Shown here: piece after piece, positions 7,529-29,295 of the stretch | Layout of the letters: each line of letters begins with the position of its first letter | Numbering within the stretch: the first letter of the stretch is position 1 | Assembly (NCBI GenBank): GCA_044225365.1 | Contig: JBGAIQ010000064.1 | Location: 1-29,295, forward strand | Origin: Planctomycetota bacterium | GTDB lineage: Bacteria > Planctomycetota > B15-G4 > JADJEK01 | Reading direction: 5' to 3' | DNA length: 29,295 nucleotides | Program-made: the position numbers and the translations under genes | Notes under the pieces: generated by a model | What the model saw: only the letters and a program-made list of their open reading frames with translations | What the model was told of the DNA's origin: nothing | Database searches by the model: none

Positions 7529-7553
7529 AATGGCCTCCTGGGGTAGGATGCCT

Positions 7554-9276: not shown

Positions 9277-9309
9277 AAGCCCACCGACGCAGGATGCGGC
9301 GGTGGGCTT
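9277..9309 (-). terminator. Strong stem-loop downstream of radical SAM gene 9409-10833, possible intrinsic terminator
   Basis: AAGCCCACCG-A-CGCA-GGA-TGCG-G-CGGTGGGCTT. On the minus strand the stem ends in only a short TTT tract. Confidence 0.45.
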
Positions 9310-9332
9310 CGTGGGTCGAGGTCAACGCGGGT

Positions 9333-9356
9333 AGGACAGGACAGGACAGGACAGGA
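9333..9356. repeat. Pentanucleotide microsatellite (AGGAC)4-AGGA
   Basis: Read directly: aggac aggac aggac aggac agga. Confidence 0.9.
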
Positions 9357-9357
9357 T

Positions 9358-9407
9358 GCCAGGCTGGAGCCTGGCGCTCCGGCTTGGCGCTCCACCTGGC
9401 GCTCCGG
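9358..9407. repeat. REP-like palindrome plus degenerate tandem tails
   Basis: GCCAGGCT-GG-AGCCTGGC hairpin (9358-9375). TGGCGCTCC occurs three times (9372, 9385, 9397). Resembles the units at 19485-19617. Confidence 0.7.
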
Positions 9408-9408
9408 A

Positions 9409-10833
9409 CTAGATGTCCATCTTGCCGACGCCGACCATCTCGCGCGCGTTCGGCTTCTTCTTGCTGAGGCCGAAGGCGCGCTTCAGGCGATCCTTGCCTT
9501 CCGAAGAGTTCTCGAAGTAGTACTTGAAGCGGGCGAGCCAGCGCAGGGCGCGCTGCGTCGGCTGGTTGTACCAGCGCTCGTAGTCGGAGACCATCTTGCG
9601 GCGGATGCGGTTGAGCTCGTCGTTGCCGAAGTTCTCGTGCATGTAGGGCGAGCGTTCGGAGTCGACGTATTCGGTGAAGACGAGCTGCTGGTCGATGCGG
9701 TCCTTGTACATCTCGAAGGACTCGGTCGCGGTGAGCGGATTGAACAGCGACGCACGGATCAGGTCCGGCATCGCGAGCCGCATCACGCGCTCGGTCTCGC
9801 GGATGTCTTCGATCGTCTCGTTCGGCGTGCCGACGATGAGGAAGACCTTCGACCAGATCCCGGCGCGACGCGTGATGCGCAGCGCTTCGACGATCTTGTA
9901 CGCCTTGCAGTCCTTCTTCAACGTATCGAGCGAACGCTGCGAGCCCGTCTCGACGCCGAAGTAGAGGCGACGGCAACCGGCCTGACGCATCTTGACGGCC
10001 ATCTCGTAGTCGAGCATGTCGACGCGCGTCTCGCACGCCCAGTTGAGCTTCAGCTTGCGCGAGATGATCTCGTCGCAGATCGCGTAGACGCGCTTCTTCT
10101 GGCAGGTGAACAGCTCGTCGATGAACAGGATGTTGCCCGGCTGATAGTTCTTCACGATCAGTTCGAGCTCGTCGACGATGTTCTTGATCGAACGGGTGCG
10201 GAAGCCGCGGCCCGTGAGTTCCTTCTGGCAGTAGATGCAGCGGAACGGGCAGCCACGACTCGTGAAGATGTAGAACAGCCGTTCCCGGTTCAGCGCGGTG
10301 TAGCGATCGAACGGCAACATGTCCCACGCGGGGAACGGGATGTTGTCGAGCTCGCTGCCCTTGATGAGCGGACGATCGGGAGTCTCCTGCTTCTCGCCCT
10401 TCTCGTTGAACCAGTTGAGACCGAGGATCTCCTTGAGAGCGTCCTTGTCGTCGAAGTGCTTGATGACCGGGACGATCGCGTCCTCGGCCTCGCCGCGGAC
10501 GACGATGTCGAAGAAACCGCTGTCGAGGAAGGTCTGCGGATCGACGGTCGCGTGCGGACCGCCCATCATCACGCGCTTGCCCGCCTTCTTGGCGTACTCG
10601 CCCCAGCGCACCGCGCGACCGACGTGCGGCGTCAGCGCCGAGAGGCCGATGATGTCGTTGCGCGCGATCGCGGCATGGACCTCTTCCTCGGTCGAGACAC
10701 GCTCGTCGAGGACTTCGATCGGCAGGCCCGCAGCGCGAACGATCGCGCCGAGGTAGATGATGCCGAGCGGCATCGCGATGTAGTCGTCGTCCTGCCCGGG
10801 CGGCGTCACGTACATCAACAATGTCTTCTTCAT
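9409..10833 (-). CDS. Cobalamin-binding domain radical SAM protein (class B methyltransferase/BchE-like superfamily)
   Basis: PLGIIYLGA, MGGPHAT, VVRGEAE, LDNIPFPAWD, TSRGCPFRCIYC, FIDELFT, FGVETGS. GGAGA RBS. Confidence 0.93.
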   Translation of the reverse strand: MKKTLLMYVTPPGQDDDYIAMPLGIIYLGAIVRAAGLPIEVLDERVSTEEEVHAAIARNDIIGLSALTPHVGRAVRWGEYAKKAGKRVMMGGPHATVDPQTFLDSGFFDIVVRGEAEDAIVPVIKHFDDKDALKEILGLNWFNEKGEKQETPDRPLIKGSELDNIPFPAWDMLPFDRYTALNRERLFYIFTSRGCPFRCIYCQKELTGRGFRTRSIKNIVDELELIVKNYQPGNILFIDELFTCQKKRVYAICDEIISRKLKLNWACETRVDMLDYEMAVKMRQAGCRRLYFGVETGSQRSLDTLKKDCKAYKIVEALRITRRAGIWSKVFLIVGTPNETIEDIRETERVMRLAMPDLIRASLFNPLTATESFEMYKDRIDQQLVFTEYVDSERSPYMHENFGNDELNRIRRKMVSDYERWYNQPTQRALRWLARFKYYFENSSEGKDRLKRAFGLSKKKPNAREMVGVGKMDI

Positions 10834-11102
10834 CGGTGAATCTCTCCGGCTGAGTTGCAGACGAGGATCCGAACCCGGCTTGGAACCGGCTGTGGGAACC
10901 CCGATCGGTGATGTTCGTCGAACCCTGACCTAGGCGCGTAAAGAGGTAGCGCCATTTTCGACCAGTGGAACTCGAAAACTTGTCTCGGAGTCGAGGAGCG
11001 ACGGACGCGAAGATCCTAACACACGGACCGCCACGGGTCGAATCGACTCGCCGACGAACCCGCGCGGCGCCGACGATCTCGCCTGCCCGAATCGGGGGTG
11101 GT

Positions 11103-13631
11103 TTACTGACCGAGGGTTATGGCGACGCCGTTGCTGAGGGCGTAGCTCGCCACGGACCCAGACCCCGCCTCCAGGATCCCGACTTGCTCGTAGACGAGCG
11201 TCCCACATTGAGCGACCTGTTCAGGCCAAGGTCCTTCGAAGACGATGCGCCCCGATCCATCGAGCGCCCCGAGTGGGATGACCGCGAGCGGGTCGACGAG
11301 CAGAGTGCCGCCGAGGAACGGAAACGCGATCTGCGACTTCCCGAAGAAGAGGACGGCAGGCGCGAAGGGCTTGCCCCCGACGACCTCGAGCGAGAAGGCA
11401 GGACCTTGGAGGTGCGCGACGAGAAGGGGAGAATTCGCTCCGCCACCGCTCGCTTGCCCGTAGGACACGGCTGCCGGCGGCCCCCCACAGATCGGCACCA
11501 TGTACCGCACGATGAAGGCGTCGGCGCCGCCGTTCGCGGTCGAATCGATCGCCCCGGTCGTCGTCGGGAAGTCCGTAGAGCGCGTCTCGCCGAACACGTG
11601 CGCTCGCCCGGCGCCCTCGATCGCGATCGAACTCGCGAAGTCGTCGGAAGCGCCGCCGAGGAACGTCGACGTCAGCAGCGTGCGCCCGAGCGGATCGAGG
11701 ACACTGAGGATGCCGTCGTAGCCGCCGCCGTTCACGAGTCCCGCGGCGTTCGGAGTCACCGGAAAATCGGTCGAACGCGATTGCCCGACGCCGTAGATGC
11801 GATCGTCCGCGTCGCTCGAGATATCGGCGAGCGCCTCGTCGTCGTGACCGCCGAGGAACGTGGCGAAGACGAGGTGATCGAGCTGCGGAGAGAGCCGCGC
11901 GACGACGCCGTCGTAGCCACCATTGGGAGTCGAGTCGTACGCACCCGGCGTCGAGGGGAACGAACCGTTGCCGTAGCTCGAGCCACCCACCACGATCGAT
12001 CCGTCCGTGAGGCGCGTGAGCCCGAAACAGAAGTCGTGGCTTCCGCCTCCGAGGTAGGTCGAATGGACGAGGTGTCGCGCGTCGCCGTCGATCTGCGCGA
12101 CGAAGAAATCGAACGACGCACCGGCGATCGGTCCATTGAAGGTCGAGTCGAACGCGTGGACCGTGATCGGTAGATCGACGGACGAGGTGTAGCCGGCGAC
12201 GTACGCCGTTCCGTTCGCGTCGACGGCGAGCCCGTAGACGTAGTCGCCGCCCGTACCCCCGAGCAGCGTCGAGGCGAGCAACTCGCGGCCATCGCTCGAG
12301 AGTCTCGCGACGAAGGCGTCGTGGATACCGCCGGCATAGCGCGATTGATACGCGCCGTGGGTCACCGGAAAATCGGGCGACGCGGTGTAGCCCCCGATCC
12401 AGAACGAACCGTCGGCGTTGCGTCGCAACCGATACGCGTACTCCTCGAGCTTCCCACCGAGGAACGTCGACCATCGAAGGGCGGATCCGTCGCTGCGCAA
12501 TTCGAATGCGACGACGTCGTAGTACCCGCTGTACGTCGTGTCGTAGGCGCCCGAGGTGACGGGGAAATCGAACGAGACCGTGCGCCCTGCGATCATCACG
12601 CCGCCGTCTGCAGCGAGATCGATTCCGAATGCATCGTCGTCGAAGTGCCCGCCGACGAAGGTCGCGAACGCGAGTTTCGTGCTCTCGCCGTTGAAGACGA
12701 GCTTCGCGACGAAGATGTCGTCGCTGCCGTTCTGCGTGATGTCGAACGCACCGAGGGTCACGGGGAAGTCGAAGGAATGCGTGCGGCCCACCACGAAGGT
12801 ACCGCCATGATCGTCGAAGGCCGCTCCGCCGTAGGCCGGCTCGTCCGCGGCGCCGCCCAGCAACGTCGCGAACGCGAGCACCGGATCGACGACGATCGGA
12901 CTCCTCGCATGGGAAGATTCGTCGACGACGACGCAGAAGACGTCGTTCGACAGGACGACGTGCCGCGACCCGATGGACCGCACGGACCCGTCCTCCTCGA
13001 GCGCGGATGCCTGCGGCGGCGAATCGAAGATCGTGCCGATGCCGGTCGCGATCGCGAGACCCCCGTCCTCCATCTCGTCGAGCCGCTCGTGACCCCGGAC
13101 GCGCACGGGCAAGGCGACCGGGCCGGTGCGTCGCGATTCGCACCGCGGCGCGATCTTCAGGTCCCATTCGATCCCCGTCGCCACGACTCGCAGGACCACG
13201 TCGATCCCGGGCTCGACGTCGCGTAGGACGACACGCGAGAACACCTCGCAATCCGCCGCGAAACGCGCGGGATCGGCCCCGCGCAGGAAGTGAACGCGAG
13301 TCTCGTCTTCGACGGGATCCCCCGGGTCGATCGCGGAGGCCGGGCCGCCGAAGTCGAATTCGAGCGCCACGGCCGTCGTGCCCTGCCCGCGAGTTACCGT
13401 CCGCAGTCCCTGGCTCGTGACGAATGCCGCTCCGTCGCGGAACGTCGCACCGAAGCGGACGCTTTGCTCCCATTGCCCACGGTTCGCGATGAAACCCCCG
13501 CTCGACGATCCCGCGGACCGCATCCTGGGCCGAGCCGGAACGGCTCCACGCGCCTCACGGAGTTCGTGCGACACGAAGCATGCGACCGCGATGAAAACCG
13601 CGATGAACCACCGACGGCGATTCGTGCTCAT
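11103..13631 (-). CDS. Secreted SBBP-repeat (beta-propeller) protein with N-terminal 'FxxNxGQ' domain and C-terminal extra domain
   Basis: Start moved to ATG 13631 (MSTNRRRWFIAVFIAVACF, GGGAG RBS). FIANRGQW...VVDPVLAFATLLGG. About seven repeats of the pattern GxTxSxDFPVTxGA(F/Y)Dxxx(N/S)GxxD(A/V/I)FVxxL...xTxLGG. Confidence 0.87.
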   Translation of the reverse strand: MSTNRRRWFIAVFIAVACFVSHELREARGAVPARPRMRSAGSSSGGFIANRGQWEQSVRFGATFRDGAAFVTSQGLRTVTRGQGTTAVALEFDFGGPASAIDPGDPVEDETRVHFLRGADPARFAADCEVFSRVVLRDVEPGIDVVLRVVATGIEWDLKIAPRCESRRTGPVALPVRVRGHERLDEMEDGGLAIATGIGTIFDSPPQASALEEDGSVRSIGSRHVVLSNDVFCVVVDESSHARSPIVVDPVLAFATLLGGAADEPAYGGAAFDDHGGTFVVGRTHSFDFPVTLGAFDITQNGSDDIFVAKLVFNGESTKLAFATFVGGHFDDDAFGIDLAADGGVMIAGRTVSFDFPVTSGAYDTTYSGYYDVVAFELRSDGSALRWSTFLGGKLEEYAYRLRRNADGSFWIGGYTASPDFPVTHGAYQSRYAGGIHDAFVARLSSDGRELLASTLLGGTGGDYVYGLAVDANGTAYVAGYTSSVDLPITVHAFDSTFNGPIAGASFDFFVAQIDGDARHLVHSTYLGGGSHDFCFGLTRLTDGSIVVGGSSYGNGSFPSTPGAYDSTPNGGYDGVVARLSPQLDHLVFATFLGGHDDEALADISSDADDRIYGVGQSRSTDFPVTPNAAGLVNGGGYDGILSVLDPLGRTLLTSTFLGGASDDFASSIAIEGAGRAHVFGETRSTDFPTTTGAIDSTANGGADAFIVRYMVPICGGPPAAVSYGQASGGGANSPLLVAHLQGPAFSLEVVGGKPFAPAVLFFGKSQIAFPFLGGTLLVDPLAVIPLGALDGSGRIVFEGPWPEQVAQCGTLVYEQVGILEAGSGSVASYALSNGVAITLGQ

Positions 13632-13723
13632 GCGCGACCACTCCCGAAAGGTCTCTCGTCGTCCGTCCGACACGAACGCAGCACGCACGCGATCGTAACG
13701 GAAATTCGGGCGGCGAAGGCCGC

Positions 13724-15160
13724 TCAGACGGAAAGGGTGTCGCCCGCGTCGGACTCGTCCTCCGAGTCCCGCCCAAGTCGCTCCGGCGGCCGCCGGAAAT
13801 AGCGGTACATCACGATGAGGTGCATGGCACCGAGGAGTTGGGCCACCGAGAACACGATGGCGCCGCCGAGGGCGCCGTAGAAATGGACCATCAGCGCGGC
13901 GAAGCCGGTGAGGAAGACGAGCAGGGAGATGTTGATCCGCGCCGAGAGAGCGATCTGGTGGGTGTAGATGTAGAACGCATCCGACACGACCGAGAAGCCG
14001 ACCACGAGATGTCCGAGCGCGAGCACGTAGATGAAGGGAACCGCGTTCGCGTAGCGCGGACCGTAGAGCACGTGGACCGCGAGCGGCGCCAACAGACACG
14101 CCACGACCGTCAGCGCGATGAACAAGAACCCGCTGACGAGGCAGACGCGGAACAAGTCGTGGCGGAACTTGCCCGGATCGTTGCCGCTCTTGCCGATGCG
14201 AAACCCGAGCGCCGGGAGCACCGACCGCTGGAGCCCGCCGAGGAGCTGCTGGACGGCCCAGATGTAGAAGAATGCGACTCGGAAGTGCGCGGTGCCGGCG
14301 TTTCCGGCTTCGTTTCCGATGAGCAGGAACGCGAACGTGCGAAACATGCCCGCGCCATTCTTGCCGATCGCAATGAGCGCGCTGTTCGTGAACAGGCCCT
14401 TCGTCTCGGCGGACGGAATCGCGGCGACGACTCGGGCGAGCGGTGGCGGCATCGCCTCCGGGCGGGCCTCGCGGCGGGCGAGGGCGTAGAGACGCATCCC
14501 GAACGCCCAGTAGACGACACCGGAAAGCAGATACGCGACGACCACGGCCTCGAGCGTCGGCGCGTATGCCATCGCGAACAGGATCATCACCAGCCGGACG
14601 ACCCCGCACGAGTTGTCGTAGAGCACGTACTCCGAAGGCCGTCGCGCACCCTGCTGGACGACGAGCATGAACCCGTTCATCATCTCGGCCGGCCCGAGCA
14701 AGCAGAGGAGCCAGGCGAACCCGCCGAGAGCGCGATCGTCGTAGAACGTCGCACCGATCGAGGGCAGGAGCGCGCCGATCGCGACGATCGCGAGACACAT
14801 GAGCAGGAACACACGGAGGTACGCGGCGAGCGTCGCGATCTTCTCCGTCTCGTCGTTCTTCCCGCAGGCCTTCGCGTAGCGCGAGACCGAATTCGTAGTG
14901 ATGCCGAGATTGCCGATGAAGAAGATGAACGTGTAGAGCTGGAACGCGATCGTGTAGCGCCCGAACTCGTGGGGTCCGAGGGCGCGGGCGAGCACGACCG
15001 ATGTCAGGAGATAGGTCACGAGCGTGACGATCATGCCGCCTTGCATGATCGCGGTCTCGCGGACGAACCGCACCTTGTGCAGTCCCCGCGCCTGATCGAG
15101 CATGCGACCTGCCGTCGAACGCGGTTCGACCGCGCCGGCGGGTTCGGGACCCTTGGTCAC
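13724..15160 (-). CDS. Oligosaccharide flippase (Wzx/MOP superfamily)
   Basis: Start placed at GTG 15160, overlapping the upstream GT stop (GTGA) with a GGAGG RBS; ATG 15103 is an alternative. LARALGPHEFGRY motif, many hydrophobic helices, LYGPRYANAVP and YGALGGAI. Confidence 0.85.
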   Translation of the reverse strand: MTKGPEPAGAVEPRSTAGRMLDQARGLHKVRFVRETAIMQGGMIVTLVTYLLTSVVLARALGPHEFGRYTIAFQLYTFIFFIGNLGITTNSVSRYAKACGKNDETEKIATLAAYLRVFLLMCLAIVAIGALLPSIGATFYDDRALGGFAWLLCLLGPAEMMNGFMLVVQQGARRPSEYVLYDNSCGVVRLVMILFAMAYAPTLEAVVVAYLLSGVVYWAFGMRLYALARREARPEAMPPPLARVVAAIPSAETKGLFTNSALIAIGKNGAGMFRTFAFLLIGNEAGNAGTAHFRVAFFYIWAVQQLLGGLQRSVLPALGFRIGKSGNDPGKFRHDLFRVCLVSGFLFIALTVVACLLAPLAVHVLYGPRYANAVPFIYVLALGHLVVGFSVVSDAFYIYTHQIALSARINISLLVFLTGFAALMVHFYGALGGAIVFSVAQLLGAMHLIVMYRYFRRPPERLGRDSEDESDAGDTLSV

Positions 15161-16329
15161 GACGACCCTCCGCGTTCCCCGCTCTGCAGGGACTCGCGAT
15201 AGAGGCCTTCGATCTGCGATGAAGTGCGATCCCACGTCAGCTCGTTCGCGAAGGCGACGCCATTCGTTCCGAGTTCTCGCCGCAACGTCTCGTCGGTCAG
15301 CAGGCGCGACAGACGCTCGGCGACGCCGTCGACATCGTCCTTCTCGGCGAGCATGCCGGTGACGCCGTCGCGGATGGCGTCCTCGGCGCCAGAGTCCTTG
15401 ATGCCCACCGTCGGAACTCCGCACGCATTGGCCTCGAGGAAGACGAGACCGAAGGCTTCGAACCCGCCCTCACGACTCGTCACGGGCGTGAGCATGAACA
15501 CGTCGGCGTGCGCGAGCAACGCGAGCTTCTCCGCTTCCGAGACGTTGCCCACGAACTTCACACGCGACTCGAGACCTGCCGCCTCGACCTGCGCCAGACG
15601 CTCGTCGGCGTAGGGGTAGTCCTTGGGGATGTTGCCGATCACCACGTAATCGACATCGGGATGTCGGCTCGCAATCTTGAGGAACGCCGGCAGGGAGATG
15701 TGATGGCCCTTTCGCTCCTTCAACTCACCGATCGTGACGACGTAGCGCCTCTCGAACCCCTTCGGCCGTGGGATCGATCGCGCCGCAGCGTACGGCGCCG
15801 GGTCGACCCCGTAGTGACAGACCGATGCATGCGGCAAGTCGATCTTGTCCCGCAGCCGTCGCAGCGCGAAATTCGATCCCATGATCACCGCGTTCGCCCG
15901 CGAGTACGACCACGTGATGAGCGGGCGATGGAAGGGATACTGGAACGGCGCGACGGAGTACGTGCCGTGGCCGGAAACGATGACGGGCTTGTTCAACAGC
16001 TTCCCCGCCATCACACCGAGCATGGCATGCGGATAGTCCGACAGACAGTGAATGAGGTCGACGCCTTTCGCCGCGGCGTGGACGCGCGGGAAGCTCGCCG
16101 AGAAGTACGCGAGGAACTTCGGGATCGAGAGATACAGCGAGTAGTCGGGCGGAAGCGCGACGTCGACCTTCACGTCCTTGGGGACGCGCGTCGAGATGCC
16201 TCGGTGTTTCTTCGCGATGAGGACGCGGACTCCGCTCGTTCGCGGTGCGATTCGGCGCAGGACTTCGGCACTGTAGACGCCGACGCCGTCGATGTCGGAC
16301 AACGAGTGAGTGAGGCAGAGGAGTCGCAC
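15157..16329 (-). CDS. Glycosyltransferase family 4 (GT-B)
   Basis: PVIVSGHG, IGELKERKGH, EAFGLVFLEANACGVPTVG (EX7E), DGVTGML. Confidence 0.93.
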   Translation of the reverse strand: MRLLCLTHSLSDIDGVGVYSAEVLRRIAPRTSGVRVLIAKKHRGISTRVPKDVKVDVALPPDYSLYLSIPKFLAYFSASFPRVHAAAKGVDLIHCLSDYPHAMLGVMAGKLLNKPVIVSGHGTYSVAPFQYPFHRPLITWSYSRANAVIMGSNFALRRLRDKIDLPHASVCHYGVDPAPYAAARSIPRPKGFERRYVVTIGELKERKGHHISLPAFLKIASRHPDVDYVVIGNIPKDYPYADERLAQVEAAGLESRVKFVGNVSEAEKLALLAHADVFMLTPVTSREGGFEAFGLVFLEANACGVPTVGIKDSGAEDAIRDGVTGMLAEKDDVDGVAERLSRLLTDETLRRELGTNGVAFANELTWDRTSSQIEGLYRESLQSGERGGSS

Positions 16330-19625: not shown

Positions 19626-21359
19626 CTACGGAAGGCGGAGGCGCCACAGCGCGAGCGCCGGCCCGGGTCGGTCGACGTTCCAGATCGCGGTGGCGGCGAA
19701 TTCGGGATCCATCGGCAGCATCGCCTCGCCGGGCGGTTTGCCGGAATACGGCAACAGTTCCGCGACCTTCTCGCCGCGCGCCGCGAGCACCGCGTCGAGC
19801 GCGGAGTTGCGGGGCGCCCCCGGCTTGCGGTCCACGGTGACGAGGTACTGCACGCCGGTCTCGGCGAGGAACTCGCCGACCGGCTTCTCGATCGGATGGT
19901 CCTTGTCCGTGCCACGTGCGAGCCACTGCTGCGGCCACGCCGAGGCGAATTCGTAGAACCGCTCGAGCGGCACCACGGAGTACGGCGGACGCGTCGGACT
20001 GCGCGGCGACTCCCCCGCCGCCTCGCGTTGCTCCAGGCGGCTCGTCCACTGCTCGAACTTCGTGAGCCGCTCGATCGCGCTCGCGTCGAATCGCAGGGGC
20101 GGGCCGTAGCCCTCGACCGCGACGATGCTCCCCTCCTTCACGTTCGACGCGACCTGCGCGAGAAAAGCCGTCCGCGTGTCGACCTGGCACAGCAGGTAGT
20201 CGAGGCGCAGACACTGCACCAACGGCAACGCGAGCAGCACGATCGCCGCCACCCGCACGCCCGCACCCGATGCGAGCATCGTTCGCGCCGCCGCCGCTCC
20301 GGCGATCGCAAGCAGCGGAATCGCCGGCGTGAGGTAGCGCGTGTGCGTTCCACCGTAGAAGACGAAGATCAGGAACACGACCGCGGGGTAGCCGAGAACG
20401 ATCGGTAGGGCTCCCTGCGCGAACGCGATCTTCTTCCTCACGAGCCACACGATGGCGAGCAGCACGAGGAGCACGAGCGCGGGCTCGAAGCCGATGAACC
20501 CGAGGATCGTCTCCTTGAAGCGTGCGAGGCCGAACACCTCGGTGCGCACCGATTGACCGCCGAGATCGAACTGCCCCGCCGTCTCGCCGCCCGAGGTCAC
20601 CGCGACGTCAGCCGAGATCCCGCGGATCAAGTACGGGAATCCGACGAGCAGTGCGACGACGCCGAATGCGATCGCACTCACGACGCCCGCCCGGATCGAG
20701 ATCGCCGGCAACGCGCGGATGCGCGCGATCACCGCCGCGGCGACGATCAGCACCGCGAGCCCGCCGGCCTGATGCGATGCGATCGCGAGGCCGGCGGCTC
20801 CGCCCATCCAAAGCGCGTTCTTCCACGTCGGCGCCGATTGCCAGCGCAGAGCGCGCAGCCCCGTGAGCGCGACGAACGCCGCGACCGCGACCCACGGCCG
20901 CGTGTCCTTGCCGAGGTGCACGAGCATCAATGACGTGCCGACGAGGTAGGCGGCGAGCAGCCCGACGCCGCGTTCAACACTGGCGAGGCGAGCGGCCTGG
21001 TACGTCCACAGGACGCAGAGCAGTCCGAGCAACGTGGTGAGGATCCGCGCGATCCAGTACAGCGGCGTCGGATCGTCGATCATCTTGTTGCCGAAGTCCT
21101 GCGCATCGCGATACTCGCCCGTCACCTTCCCGGCGGCGAACAACACGCCGTATTGCGGCAGCAACGCCATCGGCAAAAGGTACGGGTAGCTCGTGTACTT
21201 GTTCGGCGGCGGCGCGAGCGTTTTCTCCTGCGCCATTCCGAGCGCGCCGCGAACGACGTGCGTGTCCATCACGTAGCGATACGGCAAGGAGTGGAATAGG
21301 CCAGCGACCCGCAAAGCGAGAGCGATGCTGAGCACGATCCACAGTGCGCGATTCTTCAT
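19626..21359 (-). CDS. Integral membrane GT-C glycosyltransferase (ArnT/PMT-like)
   Basis: LALRVAGL then a loop with Asp (YVMDTH). YPYL, IARILTTLLG, ALWMGGAAGLAIAS, RYLTPAIPLL, and a C-terminal DTR...VAVEGY soluble domain. ATGA overlap with the upstream GT4. Confidence 0.78.
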   Translation of the reverse strand: MKNRALWIVLSIALALRVAGLFHSLPYRYVMDTHVVRGALGMAQEKTLAPPPNKYTSYPYLLPMALLPQYGVLFAAGKVTGEYRDAQDFGNKMIDDPTPLYWIARILTTLLGLLCVLWTYQAARLASVERGVGLLAAYLVGTSLMLVHLGKDTRPWVAVAAFVALTGLRALRWQSAPTWKNALWMGGAAGLAIASHQAGGLAVLIVAAAVIARIRALPAISIRAGVVSAIAFGVVALLVGFPYLIRGISADVAVTSGGETAGQFDLGGQSVRTEVFGLARFKETILGFIGFEPALVLLVLLAIVWLVRKKIAFAQGALPIVLGYPAVVFLIFVFYGGTHTRYLTPAIPLLAIAGAAAARTMLASGAGVRVAAIVLLALPLVQCLRLDYLLCQVDTRTAFLAQVASNVKEGSIVAVEGYGPPLRFDASAIERLTKFEQWTSRLEQREAAGESPRSPTRPPYSVVPLERFYEFASAWPQQWLARGTDKDHPIEKPVGEFLAETGVQYLVTVDRKPGAPRNSALDAVLAARGEKVAELLPYSGKPPGEAMLPMDPEFAATAIWNVDRPGPALALWRLRLP

Positions 21360-22546
21360 GGAAGGGACTTCTCCATTCGACCCTGCATGAAAGCACGCAG
21401 TGCGGTGGCGCGTGAATCGAACGTGTAACGAGCCGAGAGCGCGTATGCATTCTCCGCGAGTCGCGCCGCGAGCCTTGGATCGGCGAGGACCGACTCGATC
21501 GCATTCCGCAATGAGCCGGGGTCGTCCGCCGTCACGAGCTTCGCATCGACGTCGTCGGTCAGGATCTCACGGATCGACGACAGATTGGACGCGACGATCG
21601 GACGCCGAACCGCGAGATACTCGAAGAGCTTGAGCGGCGAGGTGTACCGCTCGGAGATCCGCGTCTTGCCGGAATTCGGGAGCACGAGAACATCGGCAGC
21701 CGCGAGATAGAGCGGAACCTCCGAGGGCGGAACCGGCGGATGCAGGACGACGTTCGTCGCGCCGGCATCGAGGATCAGTCGCTCGATGCGCGTGCGATCC
21801 TCGATGCGTCCACCGACGAGGAGCGCGTCGAACCGCGCGCGAGCCGCCGCCGCCACGAACGTATCGGCGCCCTTCCACGGGAAGAGATGGCCGGTGTACA
21901 CCGCGAGCGGACGGTCCATCGCGAGCGAGAGCTTCGAGCGCGCCGCTTCGCGCGTCGGCAGGTTCGAGAATCGCTTTCCGTCGAAGGCGTCCGGAAGGAC
22001 CTCGATCGAGTCCGCGACGACGCCCTCTCGCACGAGGTCGTCCTTCAGGCCCTGCGTGATCGTGACGATGCCGGCGCAGCGCGACAGCGCCGCGACCAAC
22101 TTCTTCAGTCGACCGCGATCCTCCGGGAGATCGTGGACCTCGTAGAAGAACGCGTGACGCTTCACGATCGCATCGGGGAGCAGGGCGAGCGACCACGCAT
22201 CGCGCGAGTACACGATCGAACGCTCCGCGTTCCGCAGTCGCGCCGCAAGCGATCGGGCGAAGGTCAGCGACTGGAGTACGAAAGGCAGTCGCTGGAATCG
22301 CGGCGGGACGCGATCGATGAGATCGAGCGATGCGAGCCGCTCGATCCGCGGCACGGCGGCGAGCGAGTAGTGCTTCGGAATGTCGGTGTCGGTGAGAGCG
22401 AAACGGTTGTTGCGCCGCGGCGCGAGGATCGTGACGTCGAGGCCGCACGTGGTGAGTGCGTCGACCTGCGCGAGGATCTGATACGCGTTCGCACGCTCGG
22501 ACGGGATCCGGACGTTCGCGACGTAGAGGACGCGAAGAGCGCTCAT
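21356..22546 (-). CDS. Glycosyltransferase family 4 (GT-B)
   Basis: Start moved to ATG 22546 (MSALRVLYVANVRIP). FFYEVHD, YTGHLFPWKG, TSPLKLFEYLA. Confidence 0.92.
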   Translation of the reverse strand: MSALRVLYVANVRIPSERANAYQILAQVDALTTCGLDVTILAPRRNNRFALTDTDIPKHYSLAAVPRIERLASLDLIDRVPPRFQRLPFVLQSLTFARSLAARLRNAERSIVYSRDAWSLALLPDAIVKRHAFFYEVHDLPEDRGRLKKLVAALSRCAGIVTITQGLKDDLVREGVVADSIEVLPDAFDGKRFSNLPTREAARSKLSLAMDRPLAVYTGHLFPWKGADTFVAAAARARFDALLVGGRIEDRTRIERLILDAGATNVVLHPPVPPSEVPLYLAAADVLVLPNSGKTRISERYTSPLKLFEYLAVRRPIVASNLSSIREILTDDVDAKLVTADDPGSLRNAIESVLADPRLAARLAENAYALSARYTFDSRATALRAFMQGRMEKSLP

Positions 22547-22553
22547 CCCGAGT

Positions 22554-24668
22554 TCACTTCTTCTCGGGACCGGCCCCGCCGCCGTTTCCCCCGCCTTTCG
22601 ACGACTGCGGATCGGCGGTCTGCTTCGACTTGGAATTCTGCGCCTCGAACACGCCTTCACGCGGACGGGCGCCGATGTAGCCGTTCTGCCGGAGGAGATC
22701 CTGGATCTCGGAGTTCCCGACTGCGGTCTTCGGCAGTTGGACCTCCGGCATGCGTGAATCGAATTCCTGCCACTCCTTCTCGAGGACGTCGAGAGCGGGA
22801 GGGCGGCTCGGATAGAGATTCACCCTCTCCCCCGGATCGGAGGCGAGGTCGAAGAACCGCGGCGGATCGTTCGGGTCGCGATCGCGCGCGCGGATCAGTT
22901 TCCAGTCACGGTTCTGCACCGAGAGATACGTGACGTTCTCGCAGTGCGCGAAGGCGTCGTTGTACGGCCGCTGGCCTCGCAGCCACGGCGTGAGACTGTG
23001 GCCGTCGAGGCTGTTCGCCTTGTCGAGCGTCGGCGATGCGATGCCCAGGAGATCGAGGATCGTCGGCATCACGTCGACCGCTTCCACGGGAACGTCGACA
23101 CGGAGTCCGCGCCCGACCCCATTCGGCACCTTCACGATCAGCGGGACGCGCTGATTCGTGTTGTACATCCAATTGTGTTCCCAGAGATCGTGCTCGCCGA
23201 GTTCTTCGCCGTGGTCGGCCGCGACCACGAAGACCGTGTCGTCGATCAATCCGTGATGCGTGAGGTACTCGTAGATCCCGCCGACCATCGCGTCGGCCTC
23301 GTGGACCGCGCCGTCGTAGAGATCGTTGATGCGCTGCACGTCGCCCGCGTTCGGCTTCCACGCGCCCGACATGATCGCTTCGGTGTGCTCGTTCGTGAAG
23401 CGGTGGAGACCGCCCTTGTAGCCCGGCGAGAAGAGGTCGTGTTCCTTCCCGGGGTCGTAGGGCGTGTGCGTCGAGTAGAGATGAACGAGCGCGAAGAAGC
23501 GTGCGTCTCGGTTCTCGCCGATCCAGTCGACGGCCTCGTCCGCGACGTACGTTTTGTCGAGCGCCTGCCGCACCTTGGTGAAGAGCATGTGGAGCACGAG
23601 TTCCGAGCGGAACAGGCTCCACATCGAGCGCCGGTTCACGACGTCGCGTGCGACCATCGACTCGAGATAGGTCTCGAAGCCCGAGAGCAGCCCGCTCGCG
23701 TTGCTGAGCATGCCGGTGAGGAATGCGCCGGTCCGGTAGCCGTTGTCCTGCAGCACCTTTTGCAGTGTGAGATTCGTCTTCGGGCTGAAGTAGACCGTGG
23801 GGTCCATCTTGAGCAGCCCGTGCTTGCGAGGGTACTTGCCCGTGAAGTACGAACCGAACGAGGTCCAGGTGTACGGCGCCTGCACGACGGCGCGCTCGAA
23901 GAGGGTCGACTCCGCGGCGATGCGATCGATGCGCGGGCTCGTGGGCCGCGAGTAGCCGTAGCACCCGAGCCGATCGGCGCGGAGCGTGTCGACGATCACG
24001 AAGACGACGTTGTACTTGCCCTTCGCGTCCGCGCGGCTCGGCACCTGCGCGTCGATCACGCGCTCGCGGCCGTAGAAGCCGATCCCGATCACGGCGATGA
24101 CGAGGAGCGTCACGAAGCGCCCGCGCACCGAGAGTCGCGGCATCGCAAGCATTCGCTTCGTCACGAACACGCCGCAGGCGATGGCGACGAGCGCGAGGAC
24201 GACGCTCAGCAGCATCCGCTTCGGCGAGTAGAAGTGCTCGCTGTAGGCGAAGTGGAAGAGAAAGCGCGTCCACCAGAACAGGTTGAAGAAGATCGCGAAG
24301 AAGACGACCGAGAAGCGTGGCGCGACGAACGCGCACCAACTCGGGTCCTTGCGCGTCACCACTCGCAGCAGCGGCGCGAGCAATACGCTCGCGAGGAATC
24401 CGATGAAGGCCCCGGCCACGGCGTACTCGAAACCCGAGAGCACGGTCGCGGTGAGGGCGTCGAGCAGGCTGAACTGCGGGATCAGAAGGAGTCCGGGATT
24501 CGCGAACCACTTGAAGAAGGCCGCGCGCCCGAGCGTCTCGGCCGCGCCCCAAACCGCGCCGAGGAATGCCGCTGCGAGCACTCCGAGCGCGACTTGGGTC
24601 GACAGGGAGGGCGCGGCGATGGCCGAGGAAGCGGTTTCGCGTGGATTGCCGGCGGAAGGTTCGGTCAT
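22554..24668 (-). CDS. Sulfatase-like hydrolase/transferase (alkaline phosphatase superfamily) with about 5 N-terminal TM helices
   Basis: Start placed at ATG 24668 (MTEPS), since the longer ORF overlaps the divergent gene. VIVDTLRADRLGCYGY, APYTWTSFGSYFTGKYP, HLYSTHTPY, ADHGEE, RVPLI, FDLASDPGE. Confidence 0.88.
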   Translation of the reverse strand: MTEPSAGNPRETASSAIAAPSLSTQVALGVLAAAFLGAVWGAAETLGRAAFFKWFANPGLLLIPQFSLLDALTATVLSGFEYAVAGAFIGFLASVLLAPLLRVVTRKDPSWCAFVAPRFSVVFFAIFFNLFWWTRFLFHFAYSEHFYSPKRMLLSVVLALVAIACGVFVTKRMLAMPRLSVRGRFVTLLVIAVIGIGFYGRERVIDAQVPSRADAKGKYNVVFVIVDTLRADRLGCYGYSRPTSPRIDRIAAESTLFERAVVQAPYTWTSFGSYFTGKYPRKHGLLKMDPTVYFSPKTNLTLQKVLQDNGYRTGAFLTGMLSNASGLLSGFETYLESMVARDVVNRRSMWSLFRSELVLHMLFTKVRQALDKTYVADEAVDWIGENRDARFFALVHLYSTHTPYDPGKEHDLFSPGYKGGLHRFTNEHTEAIMSGAWKPNAGDVQRINDLYDGAVHEADAMVGGIYEYLTHHGLIDDTVFVVAADHGEELGEHDLWEHNWMYNTNQRVPLIVKVPNGVGRGLRVDVPVEAVDVMPTILDLLGIASPTLDKANSLDGHSLTPWLRGQRPYNDAFAHCENVTYLSVQNRDWKLIRARDRDPNDPPRFFDLASDPGERVNLYPSRPPALDVLEKEWQEFDSRMPEVQLPKTAVGNSEIQDLLRQNGYIGARPREGVFEAQNSKSKQTADPQSSKGGGNGGGAGPEKK

Positions 24669-24700
24669 GGATTCGGTCGGAGGAATCGATCTCGACGGGA

Positions 24701-24821
24701 AGTGTATCGGCAACCACGACACGTGGATCGGATCCGTCCCAAAAGAATCGGGCCGAACGGGATCCGCACCCACGATCCGGCCGAAATCGCGGATGCCTGC
24801 CGCCACCGTCGGGCGTATCCT
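24701..24821. promoter_or_regulatory. Divergent promoter region with two TAnnnT -10-like hexamers
   Basis: TACACT on the minus strand (24706-24701) faces the TM sulfatase-like gene. TATCCT on the plus strand (24816-24821) lies 7 nt before ATG 24829. Confidence 0.4.
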
Positions 24822-24828
24822 TTGCGGC

Positions 24829-26307
24829 ATGATCGCCCCCCGACACCTCGCCGCCGCGGCCATCCTGCTCGCCGCCGTCTCCACGGGTTGCTCCCACGAA
24901 ACCGCTCGCGCGAAGCACCTCCTCCTGATCTCCGTCGACACGCTGAACGCCGATCATCTCGGCTGCTACGGCGGCAAGAATCGCCCGAGCCCCGCGATCG
25001 ACCAGCTCGCCTCCGAAGGCGCTCGCTTCGAACGCGCCTACGTCCCGCGCGGGATGACGCTCGCGTCGATGGCCACCTACTTCACGTCGAAATACCCGAG
25101 CGAGCACGGCGTGATCGACAACATCCACAAGCTCTCGCGCGACGAGTACACGCTTGCGGAACGACTCGACGACGCAGGCTTCCGCCGCCTCGCGTACAAC
25201 GCTTCGGAGATCCTGAATTCCGATCGCGGCACGCGCATCGATCAGGGCTTCAAGCAGAACGTCTTCTTCACCAAGGTCGGCGAGGATCGCGCGCTCACCC
25301 GCGACGTCGTCTCGTACCTGAAGTCGAGCTTCGGCAAGAATCCGAAGCGCGAATTCGTGTGGGTGCACCTCGTCTCGCCGCACAAGCCGTACGAGCCGCC
25401 GCGCGAGAGCATCGCCAAGTTCGATCCGGGATATTCCGGCAAGCTCGACACCAACGGCAAGGAGCTCGAGGCGATCGTCGAGGGCGTCTACCTGAAGAAG
25501 GAGCCGCTCGATGCGAAGGACAAGAAGCACTTCGATGCGATCTACGACGGCGAGGTGGTCACGGTCGACACCTGCGTGTCCGAGATGATGGCGGCGCTCG
25601 AAGCGAGTGGCGCGGCGGACGACACGCTCGTGGTGTTCGTCGCCGACCACGGCGAAGAGCTGTACCTGCACAACCTCTACCCGTACCACGCCAATTGCCC
25701 GTATCGCTGCGTGACGCGCGTACCGTGGATCTTCCGCCAGAAGGGCGCGATCGCGCCGAAGGTCGTTCCGGACGTCGTCGAGAGCGTCGATTTCCTCCCG
25801 ACCGTCCTCGCCTGGCTCGGGCTCTCCGACAAGATCCCGGGCGACACCGAGGCCAACAAGCCGCGCGGCCGCGACGCCTCCGCGCTGCTCACGGGCGCCA
25901 CGCTCCCCGAGAAACTCGCCTTCGGCCGCATCGACGAATGCGCGGATCGCCCGGAGAACACGGGTGTGGGTACCGTCCGCGACGCCCACTGGTCGCTCGT
26001 CGTGAACACCGACGGCTGGTGCCCCGACTTCCCGCCCGAAGGTGGCTCCTACCCGATCCCATCGCTCGCGCTCTACGACCTCGACAAGGATCCGGATGAA
26101 CTGCTCGACGTCGCGAAGCAACACCCCGAGGTCGTGACGCGACTGAGCGAGGCCCTCGCGGGTTGGATCGGACCACTCAAAACCCATAACGCCGATCTCA
26201 TCGACAAGGCGAAGAGTCCGGAAGAGATCGAGATGCTGAAGAAACTGGGGTACACCGGGGGCGCAGTCAGTTCCGAACCGCAGCGCGTCCGCTGCAATCC
26301 GAGATGA
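24829..26307 (+). CDS. Sulfatase-like hydrolase/transferase, predicted lipoprotein
   Basis: Start moved to ATG 24829. Lipobox-like VSTG-C. LISVDTLNADHLGCYG, PRGMTLASMATYFTSKYP, HLVSPHKPY, ADHGEE, LYDLDKDPDE, C-terminal LKKLGY. Confidence 0.88.
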   Translation: MIAPRHLAAAAILLAAVSTGCSHETARAKHLLLISVDTLNADHLGCYGGKNRPSPAIDQLASEGARFERAYVPRGMTLASMATYFTSKYPSEHGVIDNIHKLSRDEYTLAERLDDAGFRRLAYNASEILNSDRGTRIDQGFKQNVFFTKVGEDRALTRDVVSYLKSSFGKNPKREFVWVHLVSPHKPYEPPRESIAKFDPGYSGKLDTNGKELEAIVEGVYLKKEPLDAKDKKHFDAIYDGEVVTVDTCVSEMMAALEASGAADDTLVVFVADHGEELYLHNLYPYHANCPYRCVTRVPWIFRQKGAIAPKVVPDVVESVDFLPTVLAWLGLSDKIPGDTEANKPRGRDASALLTGATLPEKLAFGRIDECADRPENTGVGTVRDAHWSLVVNTDGWCPDFPPEGGSYPIPSLALYDLDKDPDELLDVAKQHPEVVTRLSEALAGWIGPLKTHNADLIDKAKSPEEIEMLKKLGYTGGAVSSEPQRVRCNPR

Positions 26308-28382
26308 CGAACCCGGCCTCCGACCCCACGGCGCAGCCTCGCCACGACCTGCTCGCCGCGGGACTCTGCGTCGCGTCCGTGATCGCCTCGTTCGTGCTGC
26401 CTCGCGGACTCCTCGCCAGCACGCTCGCGATCCTCGCCGCCGTCTGGCCCGCGGGGCATCTCGCGGTGTCGCTCGTCGCGCCGCGCCTTCGCGGCAGCCT
26501 CCGCCTCGCGCTCGCCCTCGCCCTCTCGCCCTTCGTGCTCGGCGTCGTGATGACCGTGCTGATGCTCGTCGGCGTCGACGCGCACACGAGCAGCGTCGTG
26601 AGCCTGCTCGCGATCGGCGGCGGACTCGTGTTCACGGCGCTGCGCAAGACGCCCGACCTGAAGATCGCAGTCGCCCCGCCGCTCGGTCGCCCCGGACTCG
26701 CCGTCGCATTCGTTCTCACGGCGCTCGTCGCCTGGCCGCTCGCGCAGAGCAACCGGGTGCGAACGTCGATCCACGGCATGCTGCATTCGTCGCTGCTGTT
26801 CGAGCTGATGGATCGGGGCGCACCGCCCGGCAATCCCTTCTTCGCGGGTCAGCCGCTGCGGTACTACTGGACGTGGCACCTCGCGATCGCGGCGCCGGTC
26901 GAACTCTCCGGCGTCGATCCGACGATCGGATTCGCCGCGACGAACGTCGCCGCCGCGCTCGCCTTCCTGATCCTCCTCGGACACCTCGGGATCTTCCTCG
27001 GCTCGATCGTGTTCGACGAGGAACGGGCGCGAAGGAGCAAGGATCGCCTCGCGGCGTTCGCCATCCTCCTCGGCTTCACGAGCCTCAATCCGCTCGGAGC
27101 CTTTCTGTTCCCGCACCAGTCCGAGGCGCTCGGCAAGCGGTTCTCGCCGCTCTCCCGGCTCGCCGCGGGCGACGACGTGATCGGCTACCTGCAGGCGCTG
27201 AAGCCGGGTGAGGACGATCGCATCAGCGCGACGCTGACGAAGTTCTTCAACGTCTCGTCGTTCCCGGGCGCGCTCGCTCTGCTCGCGGCCGCCTGGCTCT
27301 TCTCGGCGCGAACGCTGCGCCATCGCACGCTCGGCGATTTCGCGTGCACGCTGCTCGCGATCGCGGGATGCATCGCGCTCTCGCCCATCACGGGGCTCTC
27401 GGGCGGCCTTGCGCTCGGACTCGCGGGAACGATCGCACTGCTCGCGAACCTGCGCGACGTGGAGAAACGCAACGCTGCGCTCGCGACGCTCGGAGCTCTC
27501 GCGATCGGACTCGTCGCTTCTCTGCCCTTCGTCCTGCTCTCGGGCGGCGACGACGAAGGCTCGATCAAGTTCCTGCCGACCCTGAAGAAGCTGCGCGACG
27601 ACGCGCTGGCGCTCGCGCCCGCGTTCGTCCTCGCGCTGCCCGCGATCGTCCTCGCGATCCGCCGCGCCCGCACGACGGCGCTCGCGCTCGTGCTCTCGGC
27701 GCTCGCGTTGCCCTTGCTCGCCGTCGCGTTGAACTTCCCCGTGAACAGCGAATACAAACTGGTTCGCGAAGCTGCGCCGCTGCTCGGCGTCTTCCTCGCG
27801 CTCGCCGTCGACGTGCTCCTCGAGCGAAGGAAGGTCTTGTTCACGGCGCTCGCCGCCGCCGTCGTGCTGTTCTTCCTGCCGACGAACGTCCTCGCGTGGA
27901 ATGCCTATCGCACCAGCGCGCAAGCGAGCCTTCCGGTGACGTTCGACGGCAAGGAGTTCGTCCTCGACTCGAGCGCTCACCCGGTCGAGGAGCTCTACGA
28001 CTGGATCCGGAAGAACACGCCGATCGACGCCGTCCTGCTCGACGACGTCGACGTCGTCCATCACTTCGCGGGGCCCTTCCACGGCGCGGAGGCGCCCGCG
28101 CTTGCGCAGCGCGCGGTGTTCACCGACACCAAGAGCTACATGAACGACTTCGAGAAGACGGTCGATCAGCGCCTCCAACTCGTGCGCAGCTTCTTCTCGG
28201 GACGCCCGCTCGACTCGGATGCGATCGCGTTGCTCGAATCCCCGTCGCGGCCGATCTACGCGATCGTTCGCGCCGACTCGCCGCGCGCCGCCGCGAGCGC
28301 GCAGGCCGTGAGTCTCTCGCGGCGCTTCGAACGCGTCTTCGATTGTGCGGCAGGAAGGGTGTATCGATGGAAATCCAAGTGA
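26304..28382 (+). CDS. Large polytopic membrane protein, GT-C-like (resembles DUF2298/YYY-domain proteins)
   Basis: Numerous hydrophobic helices. Loop PPGNPFFAGQPLRYYW. C-terminal soluble domain beginning ELYDWIRKNTPIDAVLL. Stop/start overlaps with both neighbours. Confidence 0.68.
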   Translation: MTNPASDPTAQPRHDLLAAGLCVASVIASFVLPRGLLASTLAILAAVWPAGHLAVSLVAPRLRGSLRLALALALSPFVLGVVMTVLMLVGVDAHTSSVVSLLAIGGGLVFTALRKTPDLKIAVAPPLGRPGLAVAFVLTALVAWPLAQSNRVRTSIHGMLHSSLLFELMDRGAPPGNPFFAGQPLRYYWTWHLAIAAPVELSGVDPTIGFAATNVAAALAFLILLGHLGIFLGSIVFDEERARRSKDRLAAFAILLGFTSLNPLGAFLFPHQSEALGKRFSPLSRLAAGDDVIGYLQALKPGEDDRISATLTKFFNVSSFPGALALLAAAWLFSARTLRHRTLGDFACTLLAIAGCIALSPITGLSGGLALGLAGTIALLANLRDVEKRNAALATLGALAIGLVASLPFVLLSGGDDEGSIKFLPTLKKLRDDALALAPAFVLALPAIVLAIRRARTTALALVLSALALPLLAVALNFPVNSEYKLVREAAPLLGVFLALAVDVLLERRKVLFTALAAAVVLFFLPTNVLAWNAYRTSAQASLPVTFDGKEFVLDSSAHPVEELYDWIRKNTPIDAVLLDDVDVVHHFAGPFHGAEAPALAQRAVFTDTKSYMNDFEKTVDQRLQLVRSFFSGRPLDSDAIALLESPSRPIYAIVRADSPRAAASAQAVSLSRRFERVFDCAAGRVYRWKSK

Positions 28383-29295
28383 GCCGACGCCTGACCGTGC
28401 TCGCGACGGCGCTCGCACTCTCCTCGTTCTCCGCCTGCAGCAAGGAGAGCGCGCCGAAGTATCGCGGCGCGATCCTCATCACGATCGACACCGCACGCGC
28501 CGACCACTTCTCGTGCTACGGCTACGCGATGGCGACGACGCCGCGCATCGACGAGTTCGCGAAGGACGCCGTCCGCTTCGAGCGTGCGCTCGTCCCGATC
28601 CCGCGCACCACGCAATCGCTCGCGAGCATGATGACGGGCATCTACCCGCAGTTCACGGGAGTGCGAAACCTCTACGACACGCTCGCGCCCGAATACGAAA
28701 CGCTCGCCGAGCGACTTTCCGAAGCCGGGTACAAGACGGGCGCCATCGTCGAGATCCCGTTCTTCGGAGTGAAGGAGAACAAGCTCGTCGCCTTCGGCCT
28801 CGATCAGGGATTCGACAAACGATTCTTCACCGATCCGTCCCCGGGCGAATGGCGGGCGGAGGAGGTCACGCAGCGCGCATTGAAGTGGCTCGAGAAGAAC
28901 AAGGACGAGCGCTTCTTCCTGTGGATCCACTACCGCGATCCGCACGCGCCGTATTGGCCCCCCGAGCCATTCAAGAATCGCTTCGATCCGGGCTACCCGA
29001 AGGACGGCAAGCCGTACACGGGGCCGCTGCCCGAGTACTTCCACTACTGGCCGGTCGACGACAAGTTTCAGATGCAGATCCCTCCGGGGTCCTCGAAGGA
29101 GGAGCTGCAGGACGCGAAGGAGAAGCTGAAGTTCGGCGATTCGCCGCTCCTCTCTCCTCGCTTCGTCGAGCGCGCGACCGCGCTCTACGACGGCGAGATC
29201 GCCTACACCGACGACCAGATCGGCAAGCTCCTCGACGGAGTGAAGCGCCTCGGGCTGATGGACGAAGTCGTCACGGTCGTCTCCGCCGATCACGG
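28379..29295 (+). CDS. Sulfatase-like hydrolase/transferase, predicted lipoprotein, partial (runs off window)
   Basis: Not in the ORF track. GTG 28379 overlaps the previous stop. MSRRLTVLATALALSSFSA-C, ITIDTARADHFSCYGY, PIPRTTQSLASMMTGIYP, FLWIHYRDPHAPY, YDGEIAYTD, ends at SADH. Confidence 0.9.
   Translation, partial: MSRRLTVLATALALSSFSACSKESAPKYRGAILITIDTARADHFSCYGYAMATTPRIDEFAKDAVRFERALVPIPRTTQSLASMMTGIYPQFTGVRNLYDTLAPEYETLAERLSEAGYKTGAIVEIPFFGVKENKLVAFGLDQGFDKRFFTDPSPGEWRAEEVTQRALKWLEKNKDERFFLWIHYRDPHAPYWPPEPFKNRFDPGYPKDGKPYTGPLPEYFHYWPVDDKFQMQIPPGSSKEELQDAKEKLKFGDSPLLSPRFVERATALYDGEIAYTDDQIGKLLDGVKRLGLMDEVVTVVSADH

Follow-up and report, generated by a model that had tools for sequence, protein, structure and literature searches.

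Contig JBGAIQ010000064.1 of a Planctomycetota bacterium (GCA_044225365.1; parent genome G000, 6.5 Mb, 94% complete) was analysed over its entire 29,295 bases, hereafter the window. Its right third consists of two divergent operons with overlapping start and stop codons, which carry three genes with a PF00884 (Sulfatase) domain that we call SULF1, SULF2 and SULF3 (Table 1). SULF1 is followed on the reverse strand by a GT4 glycosyltransferase gene, whose probable start (MSALRVLYV) overlaps the SULF1 stop, and then by a PMT-like glycosyltransferase gene of the GT-C type; on the forward strand SULF2 and SULF3 flank a gene for a second GT-C-like membrane protein. An original prediction, made from the bare letters of this DNA, held that the three are not sulfatases, having Thr in place of the Cys or Ser that is converted to formylglycine, and proposed instead LtaS/EptA-like transferases that decorate a glycan outside the cytoplasm. 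The nucleophile-site Thr, the loss of the sulfate-binding residues and the association with a conserved glycan locus all stand; membership in the LtaS or EptA families does not.

All three products belong to the alkaline-phosphatase superfamily (PF00884 129-158 bits, PF01663 32-47 bits, fold Z up to 39.5); pairwise, they share only 29-35% identity. PF00884 (cut-off 25) scores 158 bits in the frame 22554-24941(-), 129 bits in 24283-26307(+) and 136.6 bits in the frame reaching 29293(+), and PF01663 (Phosphodiest) exceeds its cut-off of 23 in SULF1 (32.3 bits), SULF2 (47.5 bits) and SULF3 (33.8 bits). The first Thr of TWTSF (SULF1, codon ACC), TLASM (SULF2, ACG) and TTQSL (SULF3, ACC) occupies position 1 of the sulfatase motif C/S-x-P-x-R, and Pro at +2 and Arg at +4 are missing in all three, as originally predicted. 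The Thr codons proved exact to the base, and phmmer alignments to solved sulfatases agree with them, placing TWTSF on C-G-S-S-R of 4upl and A-S-P-T-R of 7stt, TLASM on S-T-P-A-R of 7oz8 and A-G-P-S-R of 4upi, and TTQSL on S-S-P-S-R of 3ed4, where the nucleophile column of the solved enzymes holds Cys or Ser, or an engineered Ala or Ser. In the same alignments the motif Arg gives way to Phe, Met or Leu in the three paralogs.

Conservation at this position is nearly absolute among homologues, those with names being Planctomycetota metagenome bins. In the best 120 of 1225 SULF1 hits (own protein included, identity down to 35%) the Thr is present in 120/120, as are the S, F and G of T-W-[TS]-S-F-G, the first Asp, Arg201, His367, His372 and Glu459; D456 is kept in 118/120, and H457, H469 and N476 in 119/120 each. 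SULF2 has Thr in 9/9 alignment rows (its own plus 8 orthologues), and the nearest 150 among 4393 representatives of 50%-identity clusters (E<=1e-30) retain the Thr in 148, the D-H pair in 150, the His of HxPY in 149 and a late His in 144. The SULF3 alignment reads T-T-Q-[SA]-L in 10/10 rows, two genomes of another family among them. Judged from these alignments, the nucleophile-site Thr is under strict selection, the mark of a functional residue rather than of decay.

The metal-ligand motifs are likewise intact: VDT/IDT, H-x-P-Y and A-D-H-G-E are present, with only 'SADH' visible in SULF3, whose reading frame is truncated by the contig end (29293) immediately afterwards. Set against 7stt and 4upl, SULF1 shows Phe for the CxPxR Arg, L-T-G-M for G-K-W-H, D-H for D-N and His for the late Lys. 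This late His, about 11-12 residues past D-H and near-invariant in the SULF1 family, aligns in hhalign with a His of E. coli K-12 EptA, the stretch S-D-H-G-E-E-L-G-e-h-G-l-W-E-H falling on S-D-H-G-E-S-L-G-E-N-G-I-Y-L-H (probability 92.5%); we take the aligned EptA D-H pair and late His to be zinc ligands. These replacements bear on whether the proteins could be real sulfatases, or sulfo-transferases, working without formylglycine. Such a reading would suit their closeness to S1 sulfatases in sequence and fold, as well as the 30 formylglycine-generating enzyme (FGE) domain matches of the genome, but we consider it very improbable: there is no convertible Cys or Ser, and the sulfate-contacting Arg, Lys, His and Lys are all replaced. 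The sulfo-substituents that the original prediction had allowed for found no support. SulfAtlas reports Thr in 30/59 PF00884 seed sequences, notes that Thr cannot yield formylglycine and excludes Thr-bearing members from the count of sulfatases (PMC5066984). No FGE domain occurs in the scanned open reading frames (ORFs) of the window, as had been remarked, but this says nothing either way because there are 30 PF03781 matches elsewhere in the genome, many of them in open frames of ~1000 residues.

The same substitution divides the PF00884 repertoire of the genome. After exclusion of 4 partial or sub-threshold matches out of 31, the 27 full domains fall into 19 of Thr type and 8 of Cys type, the latter with G-K-W-H, a block missing from 19/19 Thr-type paralogs; a single branch splits the two groups (SH-aLRT 99 in a quick tree). 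Taking the PF00884 count as a count of sulfatases would overstate the repertoire about three-fold in this genome. Several SULF2 relatives (P0157, P0272, P0153 and others) run to 900-1550 residues and align with the query over 3-8 distinct segments, suggestive of Thr-type domains repeated in tandem within a single protein. A C-terminal motif, L-x-x-[LMN]-G-Y-[ILVT]-G, occurs in all three subfamilies (SULF1 ~22620-22660 (-); SULF2 ~26240-26270 (+), reading L-K-K-L-G-Y-T-G-G; orthologues in loci L136-L144). A pattern match places it within the last 70 residues of 114/150 SULF2-like representatives, and by eye it is present in most Thr-type and 0/8 Cys-type paralogs of the genome; the motif may serve in docking, sorting or capping.

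Family models place the three proteins near the sulfatases and within none of the named families. The best NCBIfam models are arylsulfatase, choline sulfatase and PehA, all below cut-off: NF010322 (arylsulfatase) gives 150, 111 and 91 bits for SULF1-3 against 481, and TIGR03417 (choline sulfatase) 119, 89 and 57 bits against 433. Models for LtaS, EptA, MCR, CptA and YejM reach just 15-37 bits against cut-offs of 404-1250 (LtaS NF053595, 24.5 bits for SULF1 vs 970 and no match for SULF2 or SULF3; EptA-type NF028537, 37 vs 500; MCR models, 15-25 vs 1100-1250; YejM/PbgA NF038282, 23.9 vs 825), and the EptA-type N-terminal Pfam domain was not found in the three paralogs at E<=0.01. Membership in the LtaS or EptA families is rejected on these scores; membership among the S1 sulfatases fails as well, given the missing Cys/Ser, G-K-W-H and late Lys and the sub-threshold models. 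A family profile searched against PDB sequences returned formylglycine-dependent sulfatases or phosphonate monoester hydrolases in 60/60 of the best listed matches, and the ESM Atlas offers solely automatic sulfatase or phosphodiesterase names. On the combined testimony of alignments and models, the SULF proteins are a Thr-nucleophile sister clade of the sulfatases, outside the LtaS/EptA families.

In the AlphaFold2 model of SULF1 (predicted local distance difference test, pLDDT, 91.2) the catalytic domain is preceded by five helices at the N-terminal end (2-26, 39-76, 80-107, 120-146, 152-178), so that the expectation of about five transmembrane (TM) helices in the layout of LtaS and EptA is matched, by SULF1 only. 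Its start could be ATG 24668 (MTEPS) or the GTG at 24581 chosen by the gene caller (675 residues, P0003). Superposition of this model, which the original prediction had proposed as a check, returned S1 sulfatases (Z 39.5 to ~34) and phosphonate monoester hydrolases as best fold matches, with YejM/PbgA next at Z 33.6-33.7 (YejM periplasmic domain 6vc7: Z 33.7, root-mean-square deviation 3.1, 325 residues aligned). Full-length PbgA (6xlp) aligned to model residues 1-613 with a root-mean-square deviation of 20.4, a match that speaks neither for nor against kinship of the TM bundles. The N-termini of SULF2 and SULF3 are hydrophobic up to a Cys (..AAVSTGC|S; ..SSFSAC|S), a pattern repeated in the orthologue rows, and from this sequence feature both are putative lipoproteins, as had been supposed.

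The protein between SULF2 and SULF3 is, according to its predicted structure (pLDDT 92.1), a GT-C-fold enzyme. It is encoded by a single-copy gene, and of the 25 matches that Foldseek gave at E<=0.001 every one is a GT-C enzyme (DPY19, STT3, AftA, ArnT, PglB, AglB). PF10060 scores 27.4 bits, marginally under its cut-off of 27.8, and is carried by its homologues. DUF2298 proteins are known from Acidobacteriota, Myxococcota, Chloroflexota and Archaea as well. Among 400 other genomes sampled from the phylum, a GT-C homologue at E<=1e-10 is present in 19, and in 17 of these a PF00884 gene directly adjoins it, the two exceptions being the weakest GT-C matches. All 24 readable GT-C-adjacent PF00884 genes have Thr in the nucleophile column. 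The order SULF2, GT-C, SULF3 is kept in 7/7 same-family genomes, and GT-C and SULF3 occur together in 2/2 genomes of another family. Because it recurs in relatives, the three-gene arrangement is more than chance, and it reveals a conserved, so far undescribed partnership between a Thr-type enzyme and a DUF2298-type GT-C. We found no description of the Thr-type clade or of the GT-C pairing in the literature searched, mostly outside subscription journals; in that literature SulfAtlas alone treats the Thr forms.

Two small genomes of another family carry a stand-alone version of this pair, a Thr-type lipoprotein and a GT-C beside a comM/Mg-chelatase-like gene (L130 33-3096; L131 1276-4374), with no glycan genes within the short flanks. 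Their GT-C is shorter than that of the window, whose first four helices it lacks. A complex prediction for the L130 GT-C and its adjoining lipoprotein scored 0.01 against a mark of 0.32, a result that counts neither for nor against binding. The best fold matches of the GT-C modify proteins (DPY19 is a C-mannosyltransferase; STT3, PglB and AglB are oligosaccharyltransferases), and this raises the question of whether the SULF proteins might be acceptors glycosylated by the neighbouring GT-C or else non-catalytic, regulatory envelope proteins, as argued for YejM/PbgA, with which the structural match (Z 33.6-33.7) would agree. We regard this as unlikely, for the putative catalytic residues are all invariant or nearly so over hundreds of diverged sequences, which is unexpected of a scaffold or an acceptor.

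SULF1 has a conserved setting of its own. The same GT4 gene follows it in 4/4 more distant orthologous Planctomycetota loci (36-40% identity), of which L037 and L039 additionally share GT4, Wzx, GT4, B12-binding radical SAM and GNAT genes with the window. The same-family loci L138 and L140 repeat the whole divergent arrangement, SULF1 then GT4, and the PMT-like GT-C is found after the GT4 gene in L137-L140. In L137 the site of SULF1, between SULF2 and GT4, is taken by an 867-residue ORF with N-P-P-W (12360-14963 (+); N6-adenine methyltransferase-like), and in L139 no SULF1 was found at the usual place. A conserved, soluble-looking protein of ~600-670 residues is encoded immediately upstream of the SULF1 orthologues in three of the more distant loci (L036 7415-9421, L037 7705-9636, L038 8030-9850); it is not a further GT-C, lacks any Pfam match and resembles neither of the window's GT-C proteins. 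The adjacency to GT4 and GT-C-like genes that the original prediction had described is accurate for the window, and its proposed neighbourhood statistics bear it out for the GT-C (17/19) and for SULF1 with GT4 (4/4), but not for the Thr-type clade as a whole, as set out below.

Upstream of these operons, GT4, Wzx-type flippase, B12-binding radical SAM, GNAT and other genes identify the locus as a surface-glycan assembly cluster (Table 1). Presumably, the interval between SULF1 and SULF2 is the promoter site of both operons. The two B12-binding radical SAM enzymes might methylate a sugar. The second of them is 86% identical to its counterpart in L137 and 49-53% to those of the more distant L037 and L039. 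They were also considered as anSME-type sulfatase maturases, an assignment ruled out by the Pfam scan, in which no domains came up beyond B12-binding and Radical_SAM and, for the first gene, DUF4070. At the far left of the window, a 1071-residue open frame (338-3553 (+)) has extracytoplasmic function (ECF) sigma-70 regions 2 and 4 at its N-terminal end, and beyond residue ~700 it carries CarboxypepD_reg and Big_1 domains. Its product may be a single fusion protein, or the frame may be a stretch of GC-rich DNA free of stops that spans several genes.

Table 1. Coordinates of the SULF genes and other features of the window
Feature	Position	Strand	Description
SULF1	22554..24668	(-)	Five TM helices and periplasmic PF00884 (alkaline-phosphatase superfamily) domain; Thr codon 23870-23868
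SULF2	24829..26307	(+)	Putative lipoprotein (MIAPRHLAAAAILLAAVSTGC then S), Thr-type PF00884 domain; Thr codon 25057-25059
GT-C-fold membrane protein, DUF2298-like	26304..28382	(+)	692 residues; start overlaps SULF2 stop by 4 bases
SULF3	28367..29293	(+)	Putative lipoprotein (..LALSSFSAC then S), Thr-type PF00884 domain; Thr codon 28607-28609
Intergenic SULF1(-)/SULF2(+)	24669..24828	divergent	
GT4 glycosyltransferase	21356..22546 (ORF to 22660)	(-)	Directly downstream of SULF1
PMT-like GT-C glycosyltransferase	19626..21359	(-)	PF02366 25.4 bits vs cut-off 22.7; 4-base overlap with GT4 stop
Remaining glycan locus	4654..16329	(-)	The five genes below
GT4	15157-16329	(-)	Glycan locus
Wzx-type flippase	13724-15424	(-)	Glycan locus
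B12-binding radical SAM gene 2	9409-10833	(-)	B12-binding and Radical_SAM
B12-binding radical SAM gene 1	6008-7741	(-)	B12-binding, Radical_SAM and DUF4070
GT4	4654-5922	(-)	Glycan locus, Pfam scan

We hold with middling confidence that SULF1-3, rather than being sulfatases, act outside the cytoplasm in a surface-glycan pathway, as metal-dependent phosphoryl-transfer enzymes with a Thr nucleophile. In this scheme they would act on phosphate-ester-linked groups during maturation of the Wzx-exported glycan, SULF1 being anchored by its five TM helices and probably co-transcribed with the GT4 and the PMT-like GT-C, and the putatively lipid-anchored SULF2 and SULF3 flanking the DUF2298-type GT-C as a conserved module. 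The metal site, formed by the Asp of V-D-T, the Thr itself, the Asp and His of A-D-H-G-E, the His of HxPY and the His 11-12 residues past D-H, would activate the Thr, whose alkoxide would attack a phosphodiester. The donor may be a phospholipid head group, or a group linked to polyprenyl phosphate or to a phosphoglycan. A phospho-Thr intermediate would form, and its phosphoryl group would then be handed either to a glycan hydroxyl (by a transferase) or to water (by a phosphodiesterase). Phosphoryl chemistry, donor, acceptor, the direction of the last step and the lipoprotein status are what we infer from the observed fold, topology, synteny and active-site residues. For SULF1 we commit to a transferase that would decorate the glycan, by analogy with LtaS, EptA and GacH; SULF2 and SULF3 may be either transferases or phosphodiesterases acting with the GT-C. 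A relay leading from SULF1 to the two lipoproteins, part of the original prediction, gained no support, two same-family genomes keeping the lipoprotein/GT-C trio with SULF1 not at its usual place.

This interpretation must be tempered by several observations that weigh against it. No known transferase comes as close to the catalytic domain as do the formylglycine sulfatases and phosphonate monoester hydrolases (arylsulfatase 150 bits, against 37 for the phosphoethanolamine transferase model and 24.5 for LtaS). The hhalign match to EptA spanned the C-terminal half only, with the Thr region outside it. Two of the three paralogs, SULF2 and SULF3, lack the TM domain that all characterised head-group transferases have, and SULF1 is absent from its usual place in two same-family loci (L137, L139) that retain the trio. 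Glycosyltransferase matches (GT4, GT2 and PMT_2, with the PF02366 and DUF2298 models outside the count) lie within 10 kb of 7/19 Thr-type genes and 0/8 Cys-type genes of the genome, compared with 19% of random positions; minus the window's three, the Thr-type figure is 4/16, which is no enrichment. The glycosyltransferase linkage is therefore specific to these subfamilies rather than a property of the whole clade.

A second, less probable though serious possibility is that all three are hydrolases only: periplasmic phosphodiesterases or phosphatases with no acceptor, which might cleave polyprenyl-(pyro)phosphate intermediates, trim or release a phosphate-linked glycan, or scavenge phosphate. 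All three exceed the cut-off of PF01663, the model of NPP-type phosphodiesterases; the nucleophile motif of NPP resembles T-x-P-S-[LHM], the consensus across the wider clade; SULF2 and SULF3 have no TM domain, and the nearest solved relatives are all hydrolases. YejM, with the same layout as SULF1, is reported to be a Mg-dependent phosphatase (PMC7576196). Scavenging, however, fits the tight, conserved adjacency to GT-C and to GT4/Wzx less well than a biosynthetic step does, and the five-TM layout of SULF1 is typical of head-group transferases.

Beyond this locus, the Thr-type clade is a clean case of active-site re-tooling in the alkaline-phosphatase superfamily, in which the sulfatase scaffold is kept and the nucleophile and every sulfate-binding residue are swapped. 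For Planctomycetota, Acidobacteriota and Myxococcota, the sulfatase counts behind claims of sulfated-polysaccharide degradation are probably too high, a concern raised generally by SulfAtlas (PMC5066984). Through the conserved pairing of GT-C and Thr-type genes, two families that have no assigned function come to share a context open to testing. More speculatively, and with more doubt than conviction, we suggest that a DUF2298-type GT-C and a Thr-type lipoprotein of alkaline-phosphatase fold may constitute an unrecognised two-enzyme envelope-modification system, encoded as an isolated pair in some small Planctomycetota genomes and within a Wzx-dependent glycan cluster here. It would add a sugar together with a phosphate-linked group at the membrane's outer face, as a bacterial counterpart of the alternating mannose and ethanolamine-phosphate steps in glycosylphosphatidylinositol (GPI) assembly. 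We further suggest that the thousands of 'sulfatase' clusters in those three phyla may be one uncharacterised Thr-nucleophile family.

Among known systems, the S1 sulfatases and phosphonate monoester hydrolases (6hr5, 4upl, 7stt, 2vqr) match SULF1 throughout the catalytic fold, its SGSH_C-like subdomain at the C-terminus included (Z 34-39.5 across 355-400 residues), and differ in the formylglycine-forming Cys or Ser, for which the SULF proteins have Thr, and in the Pro and Arg of CxPxR, the Lys and His of G-K-W-H and the late Lys, all replaced. YejM/PbgA (LapC) resembles SULF1 in having five TM helices and a periplasmic domain of alkaline-phosphatase fold with a conserved Thr (PMC7576196), but its own family model scores SULF1 far under cut-off, and its context is lipopolysaccharide regulation where that of the SULF genes is a glycan cluster. 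GacH lies in a polysaccharide gene cluster and is reported to add glycerol phosphate to the side chain of a cell-wall polysaccharide by means of T530 and Mn, with phosphatidylglycerol as the likely donor; the first metal ligand of LtaS and GacH is Glu in that account, where the SULF proteins have Asp (10.1101/337519).

More broadly, LtaS, GacH, EptA, MCR and OpgB share with the SULF proteins the Thr nucleophile and the D...T...D-H metal motif, and SULF1 resembles them further in holding its extracytoplasmic domain behind an N-terminal TM bundle; the stretch D-H-G-E-x-L-G-x-x-G-x-x-x-H is common to the SULF1 family and E. coli EptA. They differ in that LtaS and EptA models score far under cut-off, the EptA-type TM domain was not detected and SULF2 and SULF3 have no TM bundle at all. 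GacL, for its part, is reportedly a GT-C. In eukaryotic GPI-anchor assembly, GT-C mannosyltransferases alternate with ethanolamine-phosphate transferases of the alkaline-phosphatase superfamily, and the likeness to our module, by analogy only, would lie in a GT-C and a Thr-type enzyme of this superfamily side by side on the non-cytoplasmic face.

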